A stretch of 63,173 bases of DNA, the filler included, from Chrysochromulina tobinii (Eukaryota): the NCBI GenBank assembly GCA_001275005.1. It is 9 parts of 9 records of this genome, joined end to end, with 100 filler letters (N's around TTAATTAATTAA, not from the genome) between each part and the next. Parts side by side here need not be neighbours in the genome. Positions count along the whole stretch, not along the records: positions 24,028 to 31,684 come from JWZX01000103.1; 8 more parts are not named here. One strand, 5' to 3'. The position numbers and the translations under genes were made by a program. Positions 24,028 through 31,684 of the stretch are shown in pieces. The notes beneath the pieces are model-generated. The model was not told the origin of the DNA. It saw only the letters and a list, made by a program, of their open reading frames with translations, and ran no database searches. The number at the start of each line of letters is the position of its first letter. The first letter of the stretch is position 1.

Positions 24028-24263
24028 CCAACGATGATGTGGACGATGATGTGGACTATTGGGCGCTTCCAAACGACAAGCGTCATAATCCCAATCGCTA
24101 CGGGTGGGACCCGGATCAGGGCTATCTTTACCATACTCCACCAGCTCAACAAACACCGTCCATTCTTGGCACAGCTCACGCGCAACACTCTGGAACAGTG
24201 TACGACCTCGATGATGACGACGATGATGGTGACATACCTTTGGTGTTCCGTAGGCGACGATAA
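24028..24263 (+). CDS. Acidic C-terminal fragment of a putative viral protein, 5' truncated
   Basis: Frame is open from the contig start (NDDVDDDVDYWALP...) to TAA 24263, 21 nt before the next ATG. Confidence 0.5.
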
Positions 24264-24284
24264 TTCTAAGCTTCCAGGTAAACG

Positions 24285-26135
24285 ATGTTGACCGGTTTGT
24301 TCAAAGGACGACAAAGCATTGAAGTTGGTGGGCCAATCGGATCGATGAAAGACGCGAAATCGAAAAGCTTGGCGAACCCCGACTACAAGGCGGCGTATCT
24401 GCTAAAACGCTTGACGGGTTACGAACCAGATTCGAATCCGGGACTTGACATGACGATCGACCGGTACAGACCGGAAGATAGCCGGCCATGGATGGATCAG
24501 GCTGAAAAGACCGCATTTCTTATGAACGCGGTCAAGGGCTACGAAGCGGAAGCCGAGGAGTCTTTAAAACTGGAGTTCAAAGATTGGTTAAGAGGCGAGC
24601 ACAACGATAACAACGATCCACAACCCTACAATAATGCACATGGTGGGTTGAAACGCAGAGACACGCGTGGTGAACAACTGGATGAGTGGTACCCGACGTG
24701 GTGGGGTAAGAAGCAGTTAACGCACCTCCCAGGCGTTCGAGAATATCTGCGCGAGGATCACATCTCGGCGGACAAAGCCTCGTTTGACATGAACATGCTC
24801 GCGCACTTCGGCCCGAGCAACCTCGAGGAGGCATGGGCATACTTCAAGTATTGGGTCAAGCGTCGGCCGGTTGGGCCGTGGATTAGACTGAATGAGCCCG
24901 ACGCTTCTGCTAATGCTAATACACCCTTTGAACGTTCGGGTCCAATCTCGATGGCTCCTGCAGATGCGGTTCTGAACATTGAGACAAACGCCAGAGGTAT
25001 CAAGAAGGTGCAGATGCCCGAGTTGGCGCGTCGCGAGGCAGGCAATACCTCTCTTTTGGATCGCGCCTTGACGCAAGCTGTCAAGGAATCAGCTGCCTTA
25101 CGAAACACAGAAGAAGCGGACAGGCTTCGAAAGGAAGCTGATGCTCTTGATGCTGCAGACAAGCAGAAAGAAGCAGAAATACTCGAAGCTCTGAAACGTG
25201 CAGATCCATTTAAGACCAAGTATGCGAAAGAGATGTTCGATGACGGTTACTTTGAGCCACACATGAAATCCTTGCAACAAGAGTATAAAAACACTGTGGC
25301 ACAGAAAGCTAAATCAGAGCCGGAAGTGTTGTGGCGCAAGTTGATGGCAAACAACGATAGGCAATTCACACGAGAGGAGTATAATCGAGTTCAAAACTAT
25401 ACTGGAATGACAACAGAAGCTCCACTTCAAGCTCGAATGGATCAGTTGATGGCAATCAAGGGCGTCTCACCAAAGATGAAGGAGCTCATCGGAGATCTCT
25501 TAAAGGACAGATTCAATTTTAAGGGTTCATACGCCGATCATTATCACCACGATAAACTCTTGCTCAAGCAAACTGATGCATGGCTGAAACAGGCTCAAGT
25601 TGGAATGCAGCTTACGAGACTTCTCACAGACAGAAAAGAAGCAAGGGCTGCATCAGCAGCGGCGCAGGCAGCGGAGCAGGCAGCGGAGCAGGAGGCACGC
25701 GATAAGATTGATGCATTGGTACAGCAAAGAGTGGATGCGATTCTGCGAAAAAGGGGACTATTGGAAGACGGAGATGATGTCGCGGAGGTAGATGAAAAGC
25801 GCGTGGACGAGGCGGAGGTAGAAGAGCGCGTAGCCGAGGTTCTTGAAAGCGTTCTTCAACGTGTCGCGGAGGTAGAAGAAGAAGACGAGGAGGAGGGAGA
25901 AGAAGTGGAAATTTTCGGCGAAAGAGGCGTCTTGCAAAGCACACCTGGCAAAGCTGCAGCCGATTCTAGTCCCACTGACACCTCGACAACCCTAGAAGTA
26001 TCACCTGCATCACCTGCCGTTACTCGCATGAACGAGCCAGCTCCCAGCAAGCCAACAATGAAGTTCAATGTAGCAGCTAGAGCCGTATCATCACCTAACG
26101 AACCTCGACGTCCAAAACCAGCCACAGGCCGCTAG
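24285..26135 (+). CDS. Putative viral protein, 616 aa, with a globular N-terminal domain and a coiled-coil/acidic tail
   Basis: Long ORF preceded by TTCTAAG (24264-24270). Motif QLTHLPGVREYL...GPSNLEEAWAYFKYWV. Confidence 0.75.
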   Translation: MLTGLFKGRQSIEVGGPIGSMKDAKSKSLANPDYKAAYLLKRLTGYEPDSNPGLDMTIDRYRPEDSRPWMDQAEKTAFLMNAVKGYEAEAEESLKLEFKDWLRGEHNDNNDPQPYNNAHGGLKRRDTRGEQLDEWYPTWWGKKQLTHLPGVREYLREDHISADKASFDMNMLAHFGPSNLEEAWAYFKYWVKRRPVGPWIRLNEPDASANANTPFERSGPISMAPADAVLNIETNARGIKKVQMPELARREAGNTSLLDRALTQAVKESAALRNTEEADRLRKEADALDAADKQKEAEILEALKRADPFKTKYAKEMFDDGYFEPHMKSLQQEYKNTVAQKAKSEPEVLWRKLMANNDRQFTREEYNRVQNYTGMTTEAPLQARMDQLMAIKGVSPKMKELIGDLLKDRFNFKGSYADHYHHDKLLLKQTDAWLKQAQVGMQLTRLLTDRKEARAASAAAQAAEQAAEQEARDKIDALVQQRVDAILRKRGLLEDGDDVAEVDEKRVDEAEVEERVAEVLESVLQRVAEVEEEDEEEGEEVEIFGERGVLQSTPGKAAADSSPTDTSTTLEVSPASPAVTRMNEPAPSKPTMKFNVAARAVSSPNEPRRPKPATGR

Positions 26136-26197
26136 AGCACATACGCCAAATGCACGCCGCTATTCGCTTTAAATTCTAGAGCACATGCAGCTTGCGC

Positions 26198-26344
26198 ATG
26201 GGCGTCGAGCACGTGTACGTCGTCTACGATCCGACTCGCCCCGTCAACCGCTTCGATCTCGGGTTCCGCAAAGTCTCGAAGATGATCGAGCTGACTCATT
26301 ACGAGGTCTTCCAGCCATTGCAGGTCACGGTCGTCAATTTGTGA
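26198..26344 (+). CDS. 48-aa ORF absent from the ORF track; candidate N-terminal part of a penton/minor capsid jelly roll
   Basis: MGVEHVYVVYDPTRPVNRFDLGFRKVSKMIELTHYEVFQPLQVTVVNL*. Codons end mostly in G/C and TTCTAG lies upstream at 26174-26179. Confidence 0.55.
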   Translation: MGVEHVYVVYDPTRPVNRFDLGFRKVSKMIELTHYEVFQPLQVTVVNL

Positions 26345-26379
26345 TGGGGACATGACATCTTCTAAGCATGTATTGAACC

Positions 26380-27195
26380 ATGTCGTCCCAACAACCCATC
26401 GAAGTGAAGCTCGCTCCGGGACTCCTGACCACACTGCGCGGTCCAAGGTGTTCTCTTGCAGCAGGTGAGGTGGTCAGCACTGGTAATTCTGTTCTGTTGC
26501 TTCCACTGTGGAGTGGCGCGAATGATGCTTTTGTCATCAACAACAAAGATACTGAAGGCGTCGACTTTGCGTTACTGTTCGACGTGACTACGGGTAAGTT
26601 CATCTTTCCTTTGGCATGTGTGCACAGTGAAGTGAGTGCTAGCAACGGGTTGCCTGTCGAATTGATCGGGTTTTGGACGGACAAGTTTCCGTCAGCTGCG
26701 CCTGAAGACCTGCTCACCGCGGTGTTCACATTGGTTGTGAAGAATGGCACTGAGCAGGCGTACTCCTCAGTGACGATACACCGACTACCGACGACAGTTG
26801 TCGTGGGCAATGTTACGGAACGACCAGGCACTCCGGAACAAGACCCTCCAGGCACTTCACTTACATTGACTGGTGCTTCTGTTGTAGAGAACATTAACAA
26901 TGGCTTTCCAACCATCGCCTCTAATACGCCCGTGGTCATTACACCCACCTTTCCCAGTGGCCACAGCGCTGTTTTCACTGTAACTGGCTACAATTGGGAC
27001 CAGACCGTAGAGATTGAAAACCCAGTCTACAGTTGGGAAATAGGTGCAGGCTTTACGGTGGTCTCTGGAACGCCATACACTTTGACGATCGGACCACAGA
27101 GTTTTAATCGAACACGTGTGTTCGTCACCATGATTGTCACGAGTCCTGATGGTGAAACTACGACTCTGATTGAAATGGTCATCGTGGAGACTTAA
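26380..27195 (+). CDS. Beta-rich putative virion spike or insertion-domain protein, 271 aa
   Basis: Thr/Val/Gly/Pro-rich alternating beta pattern with very few Lys/Arg. TTCTAAG at 26360-26366. Confidence 0.65.
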   Translation: MSSQQPIEVKLAPGLLTTLRGPRCSLAAGEVVSTGNSVLLLPLWSGANDAFVINNKDTEGVDFALLFDVTTGKFIFPLACVHSEVSASNGLPVELIGFWTDKFPSAAPEDLLTAVFTLVVKNGTEQAYSSVTIHRLPTTVVVGNVTERPGTPEQDPPGTSLTLTGASVVENINNGFPTIASNTPVVITPTFPSGHSAVFTVTGYNWDQTVEIENPVYSWEIGAGFTVVSGTPYTLTIGPQSFNRTRVFVTMIVTSPDGETTTLIEMVIVET

Positions 27196-27252
27196 GGAGT
27201 CACGACAAGCTTGATCGAACCTAAGATCCATAATTTCTTAACGCCGTATTAA

Positions 27253-27588
27253 ATGGCAGCGGCTAATAACTCGTCAGGAAGCACTGGAACAGAACCGGCA
27301 GAACCGACCTTCTTAAGCATCGACGAGATTGAGGGCAACTTCACGATCATCGTGTACAACAACGAGACGCATCAGACGCTTCGTGAAAAGGTCTTCTGTG
27401 TACTTGGCAATCCGACAAATCATCAACCGGTGCACACACTCCCCTTCAACCCACGACACATCTCATCCCTGACGCTGCAGCTGCGTAAGTACAACAAGGA
27501 GACGAACACGTACGAGAAGTACAACGGCCCGAAGGTCGGACTCTGGTTCAAGATCGTGACCGACGATTGCTCTGGCTCAAATTCATGA
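27253..27588 (+). CDS. Minor capsid (penton)-like single jelly-roll protein, C-terminal strands
   Basis: FLSIDEIEG...FCVL...FNPRHISSLTLQLRKY...YNG...LWFKIVT resembles the C-terminal pattern I recall for PLV and NCLDV pentons. Confidence 0.65.
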   Translation: MAAANNSSGSTGTEPAEPTFLSIDEIEGNFTIIVYNNETHQTLREKVFCVLGNPTNHQPVHTLPFNPRHISSLTLQLRKYNKETNTYEKYNGPKVGLWFKIVTDDCSGSNS

Positions 27589-27628
27589 TCGACGACTCTT
27601 GTATTTTCCGAGTGCCTGAGGAGCAACG

Positions 27629-28558
27629 ATGGCTACGAGAGCACCCGGTCCCGTGCCTGCAGGCCTTCAGCTCGCACCAATGAATAAGACCGACCCGACG
27701 ATGCAAACTAAGCTCGGTAGTGATCTCGATCACTTGCGGCAAACTTACCATGAGCCTTCGTATGGAAGAGACGCAAATGATACGTATACTGGGTATGTGG
27801 CTAACGGTATGGATCCAGACAAGGCTCAGACACTGCCTCAATGGTACCCCCGCGGCCTGACGCACATGCCAGTACAGTACGGCGGGCCATCGGCGGAGAA
27901 GGAGAACATGGACCGCCTGAATCAACTGATCGAGGTGGCGCCCAAGGGTGCGGGTGGTGCGATGCGGTACGCGCCGATTGGGGACAAGGAGGTCAACTAC
28001 CTCAAGTACATGGAGGACATGGCCGAGCTCGCAAAGTTCGACAACTACGTCGAGTCTTTTGTCGATCCAAGGCAGCCCGGCAGTGCCGAGTTTTTGTTCA
28101 AGGTCTACCCGGAGTACATTAACCGGCGCATGCAGCAGGCGCACACGGATTATGAGTTTGCACTGCGGAATCAGATGATTGACATGTGGGGCATTAACAC
28201 CTTCGACGACCTGTACTTTAAGTATTTGGTGGACCAGAAGAGGATCAGCGGTCCATCGCTACAACGTGCGGCGACTACCATTGACGACGAGTACGTCGGG
28301 GCGTACCTTGCACCCTGGAGCCATCCGAGGAAAAAGGTTGATGCAGAACATTTGTACCTCCCCTTCGCGTCCGCAAAGATTGGAGCAAAGCCAACTAATC
28401 AAAACGATTGGCGAATCGAACGCAAGGCCAATATGCCATTCAGGCACTCACAGACCCGGCAGCAATTGGCTCATTCAGTTTTCACGAAAGCGCCAGGACT
28501 TAACTCTGACGGGACGCCAAACACTAATCTGCCTGGTGATGGCAAGGGCACTGCATAA
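27629..28558 (+). CDS. Putative viral protein, 309 aa
   Basis: Clean ORF. Motif PEYINRR...WGINTFDDLYFKYLV. Variant upstream motif TTCCGAG. Confidence 0.75.
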   Translation: MATRAPGPVPAGLQLAPMNKTDPTMQTKLGSDLDHLRQTYHEPSYGRDANDTYTGYVANGMDPDKAQTLPQWYPRGLTHMPVQYGGPSAEKENMDRLNQLIEVAPKGAGGAMRYAPIGDKEVNYLKYMEDMAELAKFDNYVESFVDPRQPGSAEFLFKVYPEYINRRMQQAHTDYEFALRNQMIDMWGINTFDDLYFKYLVDQKRISGPSLQRAATTIDDEYVGAYLAPWSHPRKKVDAEHLYLPFASAKIGAKPTNQNDWRIERKANMPFRHSQTRQQLAHSVFTKAPGLNSDGTPNTNLPGDGKGTA

Positions 28559-28584
28559 ATATTCTAAGTACATTCTAGTGTACC

Positions 28585-28845
28585 ATGTCGGCCCCGGCAG
28601 TTCAGATCGAAGGGTGGCGTGGCGTGCTCGTTGTGTGCGGGCTCGGGCATCCGCTCGCGCGCGCGTTCGTCGCGGGCACGCTCGTCGGTGTCGTCGCGTT
28701 CACGGCGGGCCTGCCCAGGTCGGCGTTCACAGAGGACGGGCACTTGCGCCCGCAAGCCGGGCTGTCGAGCGACCCTGAAGCGTGCGACTATCATTTTCTA
28801 GTGGTTCCATTGAGTGTCGCGCTAGTCGTCGGGCTCTTCACATGA
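28585..28845 (+). CDS. Small two-TM putative viral membrane protein
   Basis: Two hydrophobic helices flank P..AFTEDG.LRP, similar to the P.F.F..DG..R motif of small NCLDV membrane proteins. TTCTAAG at 28562-28568. Confidence 0.7.
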   Translation: MSAPAVQIEGWRGVLVVCGLGHPLARAFVAGTLVGVVAFTAGLPRSAFTEDGHLRPQAGLSSDPEACDYHFLVVPLSVALVVGLFT

Positions 28846-29168
28846 GCAGCGTCGGCGAGTTTGTTAAGAGCAAGATGCACAACATGGCCGTCTGGGTGCA
28901 GGAGGAGCTCGGCTCGGTCATCGCGATCGACTACGTCGCGGCGGTCGACGCGCGCTCGGAGCTCGAGCTCACGACGCTGTGCGTGATGCTGCACACTGAG
29001 AGGGACATCGCAGCGCGGCGTGATTGGGACGCGCTCGTCGAGCTCGCAAGTGAGGAAGCCGCGCTCGCGCCGCTGCTGCAGATCCTCGTTGAGGTGCGCC
29101 AGCGCGAGCCGATGCACGAGAAGTTTTGGAAGTATGTGCAGCTGTTCATCGACGTGATCGATGAGTGA
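28842..29168 (+). CDS. Small helical putative viral protein, 108 aa
   Basis: ATGA overlap with the upstream gene at 28842-28845. C-terminal KFWKYVQLF motif. Confidence 0.7.
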   Translation: MSSVGEFVKSKMHNMAVWVQEELGSVIAIDYVAAVDARSELELTTLCVMLHTERDIAARRDWDALVELASEEAALAPLLQILVEVRQREPMHEKFWKYVQLFIDVIDE

Positions 29169-29199
29169 TTAGTTTCTAAGTGTCGAGTGTGTGTCAGCA

Positions 29200-29604
29200 A
29201 TGCCTGAAATTTATGATCCACTGAACCTCATCGAGCTCGACCCGGTGATGCTCAGCGCCGCGCAGGAGGAGCGCGCGGCGCTCAAGAAGACGAAGGGGGG
29301 CGCTGGTCCGTCGAAGGACAAAGCGCCCACCGAACCCAAAGAACTTAAGAAGCAGAAGGAGGTCGTCGCGGCGATGGAGTCGACGCCGCAGGAGCTGCCG
29401 CCGCCGCCCTCGCCCGAGGAGCTGCGTGTGATGCTCGACAAGATCGGCGCGTATAAGGAGCGCTTCCCGAACCTAAAGTCGCGCAACAAGGTCGGGCCGA
29501 AGAGCTCGCCCGAGGAGATTGAGGACGAGCTACACTACATTCAGCTGCAGCTCGGCACTAGCACGCAGAGCGGCAACTTTGGCAGAGCACTACGACTCGA
29601 TTGA
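29200..29604 (+). CDS. Putative viral protein, probably C-terminally truncated
   Basis: TTCTAAG at 29174-29180. Motif LDKIGAYKERFP...SSPEEIEDELHYI. The frame ends shortly after an apparent junction near 29582. Confidence 0.6.
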   Translation: MPEIYDPLNLIELDPVMLSAAQEERAALKKTKGGAGPSKDKAPTEPKELKKQKEVVAAMESTPQELPPPPSPEELRVMLDKIGAYKERFPNLKSRNKVGPKSSPEEIEDELHYIQLQLGTSTQSGNFGRALRLD

Positions 29605-30070
29605 CAACTACATCGACCACGACTGCTACACTCAGTATCTCGATCCCTTCGGAACAGCGCCGTGGGTGCGCGACGGGGATCACAAGCATCTAGAGGCGCG
29701 CGACCGTGGACGCGCTGTCCGCGAGAAGCAGCTCAATGTCCTCTTGCCCATGGTAGCGGCGGCATCTGAAATGGAGGCCGATCTCTATGTCCCAAGCGTT
29801 GCCGAGGTGGAGAAACTCCCCAAGTTCTCATCGCATGTGGGGATTGGCAATTGGGGCTGCGACACGTGGCGAGGGGCTCTGCGAGACGTACGAGGGGTCG
29901 GGGCTCTGCCGATCCTGAATCAGACGATACGGGATGAGGAATTTCCCCAGAAGGACAAGGGCCAGGTGGCTCGCGAGGTGCATCAGGAGAACTTCTACGT
30001 TTCGCGCGTTTTCGACCGAAGCGGCGCGCCAGACCACGGTAGATACTGTGCACCAGGGGCCACAGAATGA
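29582..30070 (+). pseudogene. Start-less coding segment (AEHYDSIDNY...APGATE*), a remnant of another viral gene
   Basis: Coding-like codon usage in the +1 frame, with no ATG or upstream motif at its 5' end. Confidence 0.5.
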
Positions 30071-30118
30071 GCATAGTAACACACGAACCTTAGAACTTTC
30101 TAGAGGTGTTAACGAGCA

Positions 30119-30400
30119 ATGGACGACTTGGAATCGGAGCTGGCGCGGAGTGTTTCTGCACAGGTGAGTAAAACATTCATAGAGACACGGCCGCTCCTGG
30201 CACTCGGTGTTCTGGTACTTCTCATTGGAGCCTACGAGATGCGTAAGCACGTCCCAAAGCAGCCACACAGCCGCAGCGCCGTCGTGCACGCTGCGGACGA
30301 CCTCGAGATCGGGCGCCACAGGCACGACGGCTCACAGCCGACGGCCGACCGCGTTCGACCGGGCCATCGCAAGACCATCACGTGGGACGCTAGGCTATAG
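30119..30400 (+). CDS. Small single-TM putative viral protein, 93 aa
   Basis: TTCTAG at 30098-30103 and a hydrophobic segment PLLALGVLVLLIGAY. Confidence 0.65.
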   Translation: MDDLESELARSVSAQVSKTFIETRPLLALGVLVLLIGAYEMRKHVPKQPHSRSAVVHAADDLEIGRHRHDGSQPTADRVRPGHRKTITWDARL

Positions 30401-30813
30401 AAGCTGAACGTCTATGAGACCTTCGTAGTGACTCTCTCCGTTGTACACGATGTAGATGACATCGGCTGTCGGCCCTCCAAGTGGGTTCATCCTTTTTGGC
30501 TCTTCCATGCGGAACAGGTTTTCAGGGTCGTCGTCGTCGTCGGGGGTTAGTTTGGGTCAAGCGCACATATAACAATTCCACAAACCCGATTCGTTAACAT
30601 GAACTCCGATGGGATTTCGAAACCACAGATTCCTTTTGGATGACCATCACGACGCGAGCGTTCCACAGCATGACCGCTCCAGGGCGCGTGACTTCGACGT
30701 GAACCATGCAAAGGGCCTGGTCTGACGTCGCTTATGGCGCCAATGGATTCTCCAGCCTTTCGTTCACATCCCCACGAACTTTGGACTCCCCAAACGACGA
30801 GGCAGCCCCCCAA
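30395..30813 (-). pseudogene. Frameshifted remnant with an OTU-like cysteine protease C-terminal motif
   Basis: Minus strand 30550-30395 reads LTPDDDDDPENLFRMEEPKRMNPLGGPTADVIYIVYNGESHYEGLIDVQLL*. It is one base out of frame with the upstream ORF 30547-30813. Confidence 0.4.
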
Positions 30814-31306
30814 AATGAAGCATTTCGAGCCTGCTTTTAGATTTACCTAGCCGCGTGTTTTTAGATTTATCGTGTGTTTTTAGATTTACTGCTTTGCACC
30901 TGCGGTGCATATCTTCGGCTATGTATGCCAGGTCGGTTGCACTTTCTGTGCGCGTCACCCTTGTGTTCACCCGGCACATCTGTACGTGCTTGATCCCCTC
31001 TGCGGCACCATTGATTGCTAGTCGGGTAGTACAAGGTCTCAGACGACGCGATGCGATGACCTCTACGGAGCAGTCGTGTTAATCCGCTGTGCATCATTGT
31101 CCGGCACTTTCTGTGCGTTTGTCACCCTCCTGTTTGCACTTTACGTGCATTGACTGCGAGTCGGGAAGTTGCTTTTAACCAGCTCAGCTCACACACACAA
31201 CGAATTTTCTGCATCGCGTAAACAGTGATTGGGTATTCGTGCGCGCCGCGGGTCCGGGTGACGCCGCGCGACAATTTCACACGCCGCCGCGACAATTTCA
31301 CAGCCA

Positions 31307-31684
31307 ATGTTTAGAATTCGACACCCAAGACACCGGACCGGCGTACATACGGATGCGGTTATTTCACACTCCCCAAACGATGGCGAGTGTGCCGAGGCCG
31401 AGGGCTCTTACTCGGTCGCCGTGCATGGCCGCTGCATGATTGCGCACTCTTTCGAGGGCGAGTGCTTCGGGCCCGCGCAGGCGCTGCACGGCTGCACGTA
31501 CGTCGTCGACGCCATCGTCGAGGGTCCCAGGCTCCAAACGGGCGCAAACTACCTCGTCGACTTTTGCCCTGCGGAGCGCGCCTTGCATGTCGCTCTCGGG
31601 TGCTACCGTGAGCGCAACCTCGACGAGCTCGTTGAGTTCGCGGGCGAGAACACGATGTGCGAGCGCGTCGCGAGGGCCGTGTGG
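31307..31684 (+). CDS. 6-pyruvoyl-tetrahydropterin synthase / QueD-like protein, partial and possibly degenerate
   Basis: YSVAV...MIAHSF.GE.FGPAQALHG.TYVVD...NLDE..EFAGENT..E. Truncated by the gap, and the 5' end is unclear. Confidence 0.75.

Follow-up and report, generated by a model that had tools for sequence, protein, structure and literature searches.

Pentons control host attachment across a large kingdom of DNA viruses, and their known variation comprises loop insertions, whole-domain paralogues and separately docked fibres. A locus of the haptophyte Chrysochromulina tobinii raises the question of how a capsid vertex is closed when the gene in the place of the penton encodes only part of a jelly roll. 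We studied a window of 63,173 nucleotides (nt) from assembly GCA_001275005.1 (the whole stretch of DNA analysed), in which nine contigs are joined by N44-TTAATTAATTAA-N44 linkers and a cluster of viral genes makes up most of the contig at 24028-31684. We assign this cluster to the Gamadviridae (Mriyaviricetes) and propose that in this apparently endogenous gamadvirus the penton is probably encoded by two open reading frames (ORFs), a front half (strands B-C-D) and a back half (strands E-I), whose chains assemble together.

A putative two-gene penton

Mriya_51 is preceded in most gamadvirus loci by an intact penton gene, which encodes ~140-170 amino acids (aa) or carries an N-terminal extension. 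The window holds the following ORFs in this place and just upstream of it:

26198..26344, + strand: penton front half, 48 aa, predicted strands B-C-D, without cargo; its own TTCTAG at 26174
26380..27195, + strand: beta-rich two-domain stand-alone protein, 271 aa, candidate vertex spike or head; its own TTCTAAG at 26360
27253..27588, + strand: penton back half, 111 aa, predicted strands E-I; an in-frame stop and a TTTCTTAA motif variant ahead of it

An earlier note on this DNA, made from the sequence alone, had taken 27253-27588 for a single-jelly-roll penton. Its relationship to pentons stands, but the ORF corresponds to the E-I half only, as its profile aligns with that of intact gamadvirus pentons over columns 60-147 alone (probability 95%, E 3.8e-8). 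The atlas features of this back half score 0.96 to the cluster of the Sputnik minor capsid protein V18/19, and its 90% cluster contains 17 sequences of 103-112 aa. Because the ORF is only half a penton, the absence of a predicted jelly roll for it alone, which the note had named as a refutation, could have misled. The front half aligns with residues 1-38 of the natural full-length fusions P0157, P0172 and P0177. In the window the two halves lie in different frames, 908 nt apart and with stops between them, so that the fold is not encoded by one continuous ORF. Three independent lines connect the front half with the back half: the natural fusions, the fold of P0172 and the atlas placement of the back half.

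The structure predicted for the fusion P0172 has a predicted local distance difference test score (pLDDT) of 82.1 and a pTM of 0.75. Among 48,161 chains compared by VIA-align, the best match was 6ncl_a6 of PBCV-1, which we take to be penton P1 (Z 11.1, root-mean-square deviation 2.9, 120 aligned residues), followed by 8rbt_S of EhV-201 (Z 9.8), 8h2i_bG (9.6) and a PNGase (8.0), with Sputnik 3j26_N (7.7) and the mavirus penton 6g41 (7.2) among the further matches. A sequence search of the PDB with alignment A8 returned nothing significant. In the P0172 model the halves taken together form an eight-stranded B-I jelly roll. The cut sits just behind the third strand (residues 37-44), at the D-E loop, where P1v1 of PBCV-1 has a large insertion (PMC9617893).

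The back half retrieved 33 clusters, of which 26 contain the back half only (an upper bound, as some may be cut calls on short contigs; P0315, for example, falls in the cluster of the intact P0172), three are front-back fusions and four are back-front, i.e. circularly permuted, fusions. In locus L007 a back-front-cargo gene is followed by a second copy; a single-sequence AlphaFold prediction of the permuted L007 protein was uninformative (pLDDT 39). Both halves appear to be under purifying selection, judging from uncorrected pN/pS values against the window of 0.35-0.63 for the front half (eight homologues) and 0.36-0.48 for the back half.

The split is found in seven distinct loci, in all of which an in-frame stop lies 0-13 codons ahead of the start of the back half and a TTTCT[TC]A-like motif ~20 nt upstream of it. 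The window, L011, L012, L016 and L017/L058 each show the two halves as distinct ORFs, while in L010 and L013/L014 only a back half, preceded by another gene, is seen. Frame and spacing differ among the loci (gap 21-1646 nt), and the front-half gene closest to the back half of L017/L058 is antisense to it. In a tree of Mriya_51 (47 rows matching over 170 columns or more after removal of identical rows, midpoint root, quick search) nine split rows, one permuted row and two rows without penton information form a single branch (SH-aLRT 99) among intact-penton loci. A different branch of 17 rows (L003-L006, L028-L035 and related) has no penton-like ORF directly before Mriya_51, and neither half-profile matches there; the penton of these loci is either divergent or encoded at another place. 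The two near-identical contigs L017 and L058 differ by a 741-bp inversion (L017:3465-4205 versus L058:1839-2579), which breaks two L017 genes and may reflect damage or mis-assembly. We considered an invertible shufflon at this place and dropped the idea, as the ends carry no inverted repeats and two genes are broken.

The split also accounts for a gap in the published record. L012, the closest long relative, is a gamadvirus representative in Table S1 of PMC11253617, and in the presence table of that paper the minor capsid protein PEV_22 is scored in 20 of 21 gamadvirus rows, L012 being the sole exception. By ORF count, the three unannotated genes that separate Mriya_1 from Mriya_51 in L012 comprise two front halves with cargo and a back half; its apparent lack of a minor capsid protein is therefore explained by a penton that is split.

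Front halves occur in several copies. L012 has three (709, 44 and 534 aa) with one back half, and L017/L058 have two. A profile of the front half yielded 45 representatives at 50% identity, 44 of which re-match: one front-back fusion, five back-front proteins recognised by both profiles, four apparent fragments of permuted genes, and 34 that lack a back half and begin, or nearly begin, with the front half. The cargo of these 34 comprises collagen repeats (4), Ala-rich runs (7) and a beta-repeat motif (13), and eight are at most 65 aa long; the classes overlap, and some short representatives may be fragments. We presume the beta-repeat motif to be Ig-like. A protein of L011 with a similar beta-repeat matched only DUF7507 in Pfam (E 5e-4).

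The 271-aa gene follows a bare front half in L017/L058 as well, i.e. both are kept as a cassette. None of its 24 homologues (149-475 aa in the range searched) has a match to B-C-D. The family is weakly linked, through its L017 homologue (E 3e-7) and not directly, to the head of P0216, a fusion of a front half with collagen, and its atlas features score 0.82 to Ig/PKD-like clusters, which we regard as a lead only. The tail of the front half (PLQVTV, 26312-26341) resembles the start of the 271-aa protein (PIEVKL, 26392-26412); both are short strands, each conserved in its family, and may be a docking pair.

Several points weigh against a two-chain penton, besides the upper bound given above for the lone back halves. 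Taken by itself, the front half matches the profile of intact gamadvirus pentons weakly (probability 3.6%, E 0.012). The P0172 model is that of a relative's natural fusion and not of the two window proteins together, and its alignment contained both halves as rows. Several front-half representatives are our own seed sequences. The search for the Mriya_51 tree was quick and gave long-branch warnings, and the close front-back fusions come without genomic context. In RNA run X16 the viral region is represented only by short pieces with 3-36 differences, which is neutral on expression, and the window contains three GT/GC-AG pairs through which the halves could, in theory, be spliced in frame.

From two chains to a vertex

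The established topology of the jelly roll places strand I between B and D in the BIDG sheet and C next to H in the CHEF sheet; neither half should therefore fold alone. Each subunit would be an obligate heterodimer in which the halves interlock to form a single jelly roll, and a vertex would be closed by five of them. Since the cut lies at the outward D-E loop, where the pentons of Sputnik and PBCV-1 (P1v1) carry inserted domains, cargo following strand D would be displayed outside the capsid. Several front halves would compete for one back half, so that a vertex might mix bare and spiked subunits, by analogy with phage PR772. Such mixed vertices could solve the three-versus-five mismatch of collagen fibres, and host-binding heads could be swapped or duplicated with the rest of the penton untouched. 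In the window copy the 271-aa protein would dock non-covalently as a spike on the bare front half, perhaps through its N-terminal strand as in the spikes of HCIV-1; this is the weakest step. TCTA motifs act as late promoters of related giant viruses, and the genes would be transcribed as late genes from a TTCTA-type motif. We think it rather likely that a clade of algal mriyaviruses, most of them uncultured, possesses a two-piece penton, with a five-stranded socket and three-stranded plugs of ~40 residues that carry varied fibres or none, and hence a combinatorial vertex. With similar confidence we suggest that one close family holds the fold in intact, split and circularly permuted form, a natural snapshot of the fission and permutation of a virion jelly roll.

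Could the halves instead be rejoined after transcription, by cis-splicing, read-through or frameshift, into an ordinary penton whose cargo genes are nested or alternatively spliced? Nuclear replication has been proposed for mriyaviruses (PMC11253617), the 25-aa insert that interrupts PDDEXK in L001/L024 may be an intron, and candidate donor-acceptor pairs exist in the window (3), L011 (3), L016 (4) and L017 (12). However, L012 has none for the two of its three front halves that were tested, the host GTGCG donor occurs in no window candidate, and the codons of the candidate window acceptor are missing from several 90%-identical relatives that retain the start Met. Given, in addition, the frames and gaps that differ across loci, the antisense position of the nearest front half in L017/L058 and the back-front fusions, which cannot yield the B-to-I order, rejoining appears improbable. 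It is also unlikely that the halves have ceased to be one domain, with the back half building the vertex alone (e.g. by strand swapping) and the front half serving as an anchor tag for spikes elsewhere on the capsid. The far more variable copy number of the front half and its fusion to many cargos would fit separate roles, as would an atlas model of the lone back half with a TM score of 0.52-0.57 to full-length clusters, but that model is poor (pLDDT 0.56). Moreover, fusions in both orders leave both halves nearly unchanged, as expected for mutual completion, and the conservation of bare front halves of 44-48 aa is unexplained by a mere tag.

That the split is decay, a pseudogene of an endogenous copy broken by insertion of the 271-aa gene, seems very improbable, even though the copy has suffered a 2-kb deletion at another place and probably lies in the host genome. 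Conservation already largely refutes it: the same split, with separate motifs, is found in loci that are 53-67% identical in the back half, among them a genome of 31.7 kb in which every other hallmark gene of gamadviruses is present; purifying selection acts on both halves; and the bare front half and the 271-aa gene are retained as a cassette in L017/L058.

The complementing two-chain penton that we favour has partial counterparts in other vertex systems. In PR772/PRD1 the vertex consists of three P5 and two P31 (PMC6750898) and resembles the proposed one in its bare and spiked subunits, collagen-like stalk and several genes per vertex, but P5 and P31 are complete jelly rolls with a C-terminal spike, whereas here the duplication is confined to three strands, the others being common to all subunits, and the cargo sits at the D-E loop; the mixing of subunits has been shown in PR772 and is inferred here. 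Extra domains likewise emerge from the D-E loop in P1v1 of PBCV-1 (PMC9617893) and in Sputnik and zamilon (PMC11253617), and PBCV-1 and Sputnik are among the fold matches of P0172. In these pentons the insert belongs to a continuous chain, while here the chain is cut, so that the C-terminus of the cargo is free and a long fibre is possible. The penton VP9 of HCIV-1/HHIV-2 anchors its spike by a donated beta-strand (PMC6414509) and offers a possible model for the 271-aa protein; VP9 is, however, a complete barrel to which the spike adds an extra strand, and its core strands are not supplied by the spike.

Our search of the literature on split, permuted or strand-complemented pentons and on Gamadviridae found no description of a two-gene penton, most subscription papers being outside its scope; a framework preprint on Polinton-like viruses (PLV; 10.64898/2026.06.19.733378) mentions duplicated pentons and, in the passages accessible, no split. 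A two-gene, cargo-swapping penton would be a new form of vertex architecture, and two complementing chains with swappable cargo would add a further way to vary pentons. It would also be a caution that other viruses reported to lack a penton may have one in pieces that gene callers pass over as too short. With 50-90% identity in the common half, the intact, split and permuted forms offer an unusually clean case for the origin of circular permutation.

The gamadvirus gene block

The remaining features of the viral contig are as follows:

24285..26135, + strand: Mriya_1 homologue, 616 aa, with a conserved N-terminal domain and a variable low-complexity tail; 48% identity over 510 columns to the ORF in gene position 10 of L012
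27629..28558, + strand: Mriya_51 homologue, 309 aa; 67% to L012 gene 14; 293 homologues
28585..28845, + strand: Mriya_50 homologue with two predicted membrane helices (hydrophobic peaks at residues 24 and 67); 81% to L012 gene 15
28842..29168, + strand: PEV_20 homologue (KFWKY protein); 85% to L012 gene 16; ATGA overlap with Mriya_50
29200..29604, + strand: Mriya_48 (envelope protein) homologue, 3'-truncated, 128 of 230 aa; 91% to residues 1-128 of L012 gene 17
29583..29584, no strand: deletion junction, ~2.0 kb lost relative to L012, from blastn blocks against L012
29584..30070, + strand: PEV_15 homologue without its own start, holding a 106-aa ORF (29750-30070); 73% to residues 4-163 of the ORF in gene position 21 of L012
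30119..30400, + strand: small viral ORF, 93 aa, single membrane helix, the last with viral homology; 54% to L012 14492-14728; TTCTAG at 30098
31296..31361, no strand: 66-nt high-copy repeat just 5' of the host gene; bin depth >8000 and dozens of flanks in runs X1 and X8
31307..31684, + strand: host 6-pyruvoyl-tetrahydropterin synthase (PTPS), cut by the contig end; Pfam PF01242, E 3e-8; cluster members named PTPS

As judged from its sequence, the cluster is the structural gene module of a gamadvirus, because six of its ORFs match genes of L012 at 48-91% identity and in the same order (Mriya_1 48%, Mriya_51 67%, Mriya_50 81%, PEV_20 85%, Mriya_48 91%, PEV_15 73%). The gene numbers of L012 were assigned by counting ORFs, which agrees with the published annotation at its anchors (10 Mriya_1, 14 Mriya_51, 15 Mriya_50, 16 PEV_20, 17 Mriya_48, 21 PEV_15, 23 HUH). 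All four mriyavirus-specific genes (Mriya_1, Mriya_48, Mriya_50, Mriya_51) are present, Mriya_48 being truncated, and so are the gamadvirus-only genes PEV_20 (85%), PEV_15 (73%) and, as two halves, PEV_22. The full Mriya_48 protein of L012 matches Pfam DUF5767 (E 1e-10), and Mriya_51 is an abundant virion protein in yaravirus (PMC11253617). With the 309-aa Mriya_51 homologue as query we retrieved six viral and 51 metagenomic loci and, separately, 293 proteins. The relatives carry the same gene block along with a major capsid protein (MCP) of the type of nucleocytoplasmic large DNA viruses (NCLDV), an A32 ATPase, VLTF3, an A22-type resolvase and a YqaJ-like nuclease; NCLDV-type MCP and VLTF3 place them in Mriyaviricetes. 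The preference of the earlier note for a small, mriyavirus-like member of the Nucleocytoviricota over a Polinton, in a haptophyte, is borne out by six Gamadviridae homologues in L012 order and, as to the host, by genes on other window contigs that cluster with Chrysochromulina parva proteins.

The published Gamadviridae, a proposed family (PEV, NDDV, Phaglo-G; PMC11253617), share with the cluster the homologues and the order of the minor capsid protein, Mriya_51, Mriya_50, PEV_20, Mriya_48 and PEV_15, as well as Mriya_1 and PDDEXK nearby and a haptophyte host. They differ in that their minor capsid protein PEV_22 is a typical single jelly roll (PMC11253617), in place of which there are here two genes and paralogous cargo-bearing front halves, and in that the present copy has a deletion and lacks replication and MCP genes on its contig. 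Here a known family gains a new member.

Ten + strand ORFs span 24285-30400, with intergenic gaps of 62, 35, 57, 40, 26, -4, 31, 145 and 48 nt, the negative gap being an ATGA overlap at 28842-28845, just as the earlier note had described about ten co-oriented ORFs with short gaps and such an overlap. Our initial ORF cut-off was 50 aa, and the 48-codon front half at 26198-26344, which the note does not name, lies below it. The upstream motif that the note had seen is real: TTCTA[AG] occurs at most 50 nt 5' of seven of the nine starts tested, against 4.9% of random contig positions (binomial p 2e-8), and a looser TTC[TC] lies 18-26 nt upstream of eight of the nine. The peptide motifs it listed are likewise in the ORFs (FTEDGHLRP for F..DG..RP, KFWKY, and LDKIGAYKERF...SPEEI for LDKI..Y..F...S.EEI). 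Its remark on low GC holds for 24028-28560 (0.52) but not for 28561-30400 (0.61, as in the host), and the viral homology ends near 30410 rather than reaching 31300.

No Pfam family matched above cut-off for the ten viral-region ORFs scanned, a set without the 48-aa ORF. Scans of viral contigs gave no match for the 271-aa ORF or the front-half alignment, and the back-half alignment returned the L007 contig only. An affiliation with tailed phages, which the note had named as contrary to its reading, is unsupported, as a phage collection searched with the Mriya_51 homologue contained no match.

In agreement with the note, which had seen no MCP or packaging ATPase, tblastn of the window (10 queries, 9 genes, E 0.01) found no match to MCP, ATPase, VLTF2, VLTF3, HUH, RuvC, ssb, helicase or PDDEXK. 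L008 is an identical contig that reaches 3.5 kb further to the left (11.6 kb in total) and adds a PDDEXK gene, 88% identical to that of L007. These 11.6 kb are the whole assembled length of the element, where gamadvirus genomes have 35-45 kb. MCP had no match on L008 either, although the nearest relatives do carry it, and ATPase, VLTF, RuvC, HUH, ssb and helicase had none on the 7.7-kb contig or the 11.6-kb extension; a set of ATPase, VLTF2, VLTF3, RuvC, HUH endonuclease and SF3 helicase is present in the relatives L012 and L007. On the contig, which holds a partial element, we saw no PLV-type MCP, protein-primed PolB, tyrosine recombinase/integrase or terminal inverted repeats.

Twenty-five codons that relatives lack are inserted in frame into PDDEXK in L001 (4957-5772) and L024 (2878-3645), possibly a spliceosomal intron. 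A long inverted repeat with an AT-rich loop lies 5' of the PDDEXK gene in L008 (1700-1950) and L007 (8080-8230), and L017 has a palindrome of 108 bp (1653-1760); both are candidate origins of HUH-initiated replication.

Deletion, host flank and probable integration

The element is likely an endogenous, defective copy in Chrysochromulina, which adds this genus as a likely host of an endogenous gamadvirus. Compared with L012, ~2.0 kb are missing at 29583/29584: the blastn block 27594-29583 corresponds to L012 9967-11950 and the block 29584-30104 to L012 13961-14478, and GGCGCT stands at both ends of the deleted stretch in L012. One deletion thus explains both the 3' truncation of the ORF at 29200 and the 5' truncation of that at 29750; Mriya_48 is cut, three genes are gone and PEV_15 has lost its start. 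With Mriya_48 and PEV_15 cut, the present copy alone is unlikely to make particles.

We consider the viral block very probably integrated in the host genome. The host genes that the earlier note saw on the flanks are confirmed to the right, where PTPS is contiguous, but the left side is a contig break. Two contigs, L008 and L009, both pass from viral genes into host PTPS. Read depth, a check proposed in the note, puts the viral contigs near the host: among long contigs, 46-54 for the virus against 37-51 for the host in run X1 and 40-45 against 35-43 in run X8, where contig depth is no copy number and both culture runs may be the window's own source. The tetranucleotide profile, also suggested there, did not separate virus from host, since correlations with host contigs (r 0.10-0.60) and with viral loci (0.41-0.66) overlap. 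On the other window contigs the long ORFs matching Pfam, among those scanned, are cellular (dynein heavy chain, PPR, Sec1, calpain, multicopper oxidase); the host genes there fall into 90% clusters with Chrysochromulina parva proteins and have GT-AG introns that are spliced in RNA run X16. A related element, Phaglo-G, is reported from Phaeocystis assemblies, while the C. parva genome examined in the same preprint is reported to hold no integrated virus (10.1101/2022.07.28.501842, as far as its accessible text goes).

Alternatively, mis-assembly might have joined host DNA to a virus that persists as an episome or was co-cultured, a reading that concerns the location of the element and not the split. 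The join runs through two error-prone repeats, the 126-nt tandem unit and the 66-nt high-copy repeat, neither terminal repeat nor integrase was seen, and none of the listed run contigs spans a viral gene and PTPS in one piece; L008, L009 and runs X1-X14 may, furthermore, all stem from one culture. Against this stand the similar depths of virus and host in two runs (with the limit on depth just given), the join common to two assemblies, the deletion of core genes, which suits a genomic fossil, and the report of Phaglo-G in Phaeocystis assemblies (10.1101/2022.07.28.501842). We regard mis-assembly as unlikely.

Some details of the flank deserve mention. Three short TTTTAGATTTA repeats lie at 30828-30888, between the last viral gene and PTPS. 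The 126-nt unit (31044-31169; L008:10555-10680) stands in tandem and reaches a depth of about 360-390 in run contigs. The 66-nt repeat (31296-31361) is present or absent before PTPS in different contigs, a contig of X15 joins across it, and it could represent a small host mobile element. The PTPS copy itself has apparently two extra bases (31380-31400) past the start used by the cluster member P0306, and in L008 it is followed by a second PTPS-like domain (L008:10818-11558).

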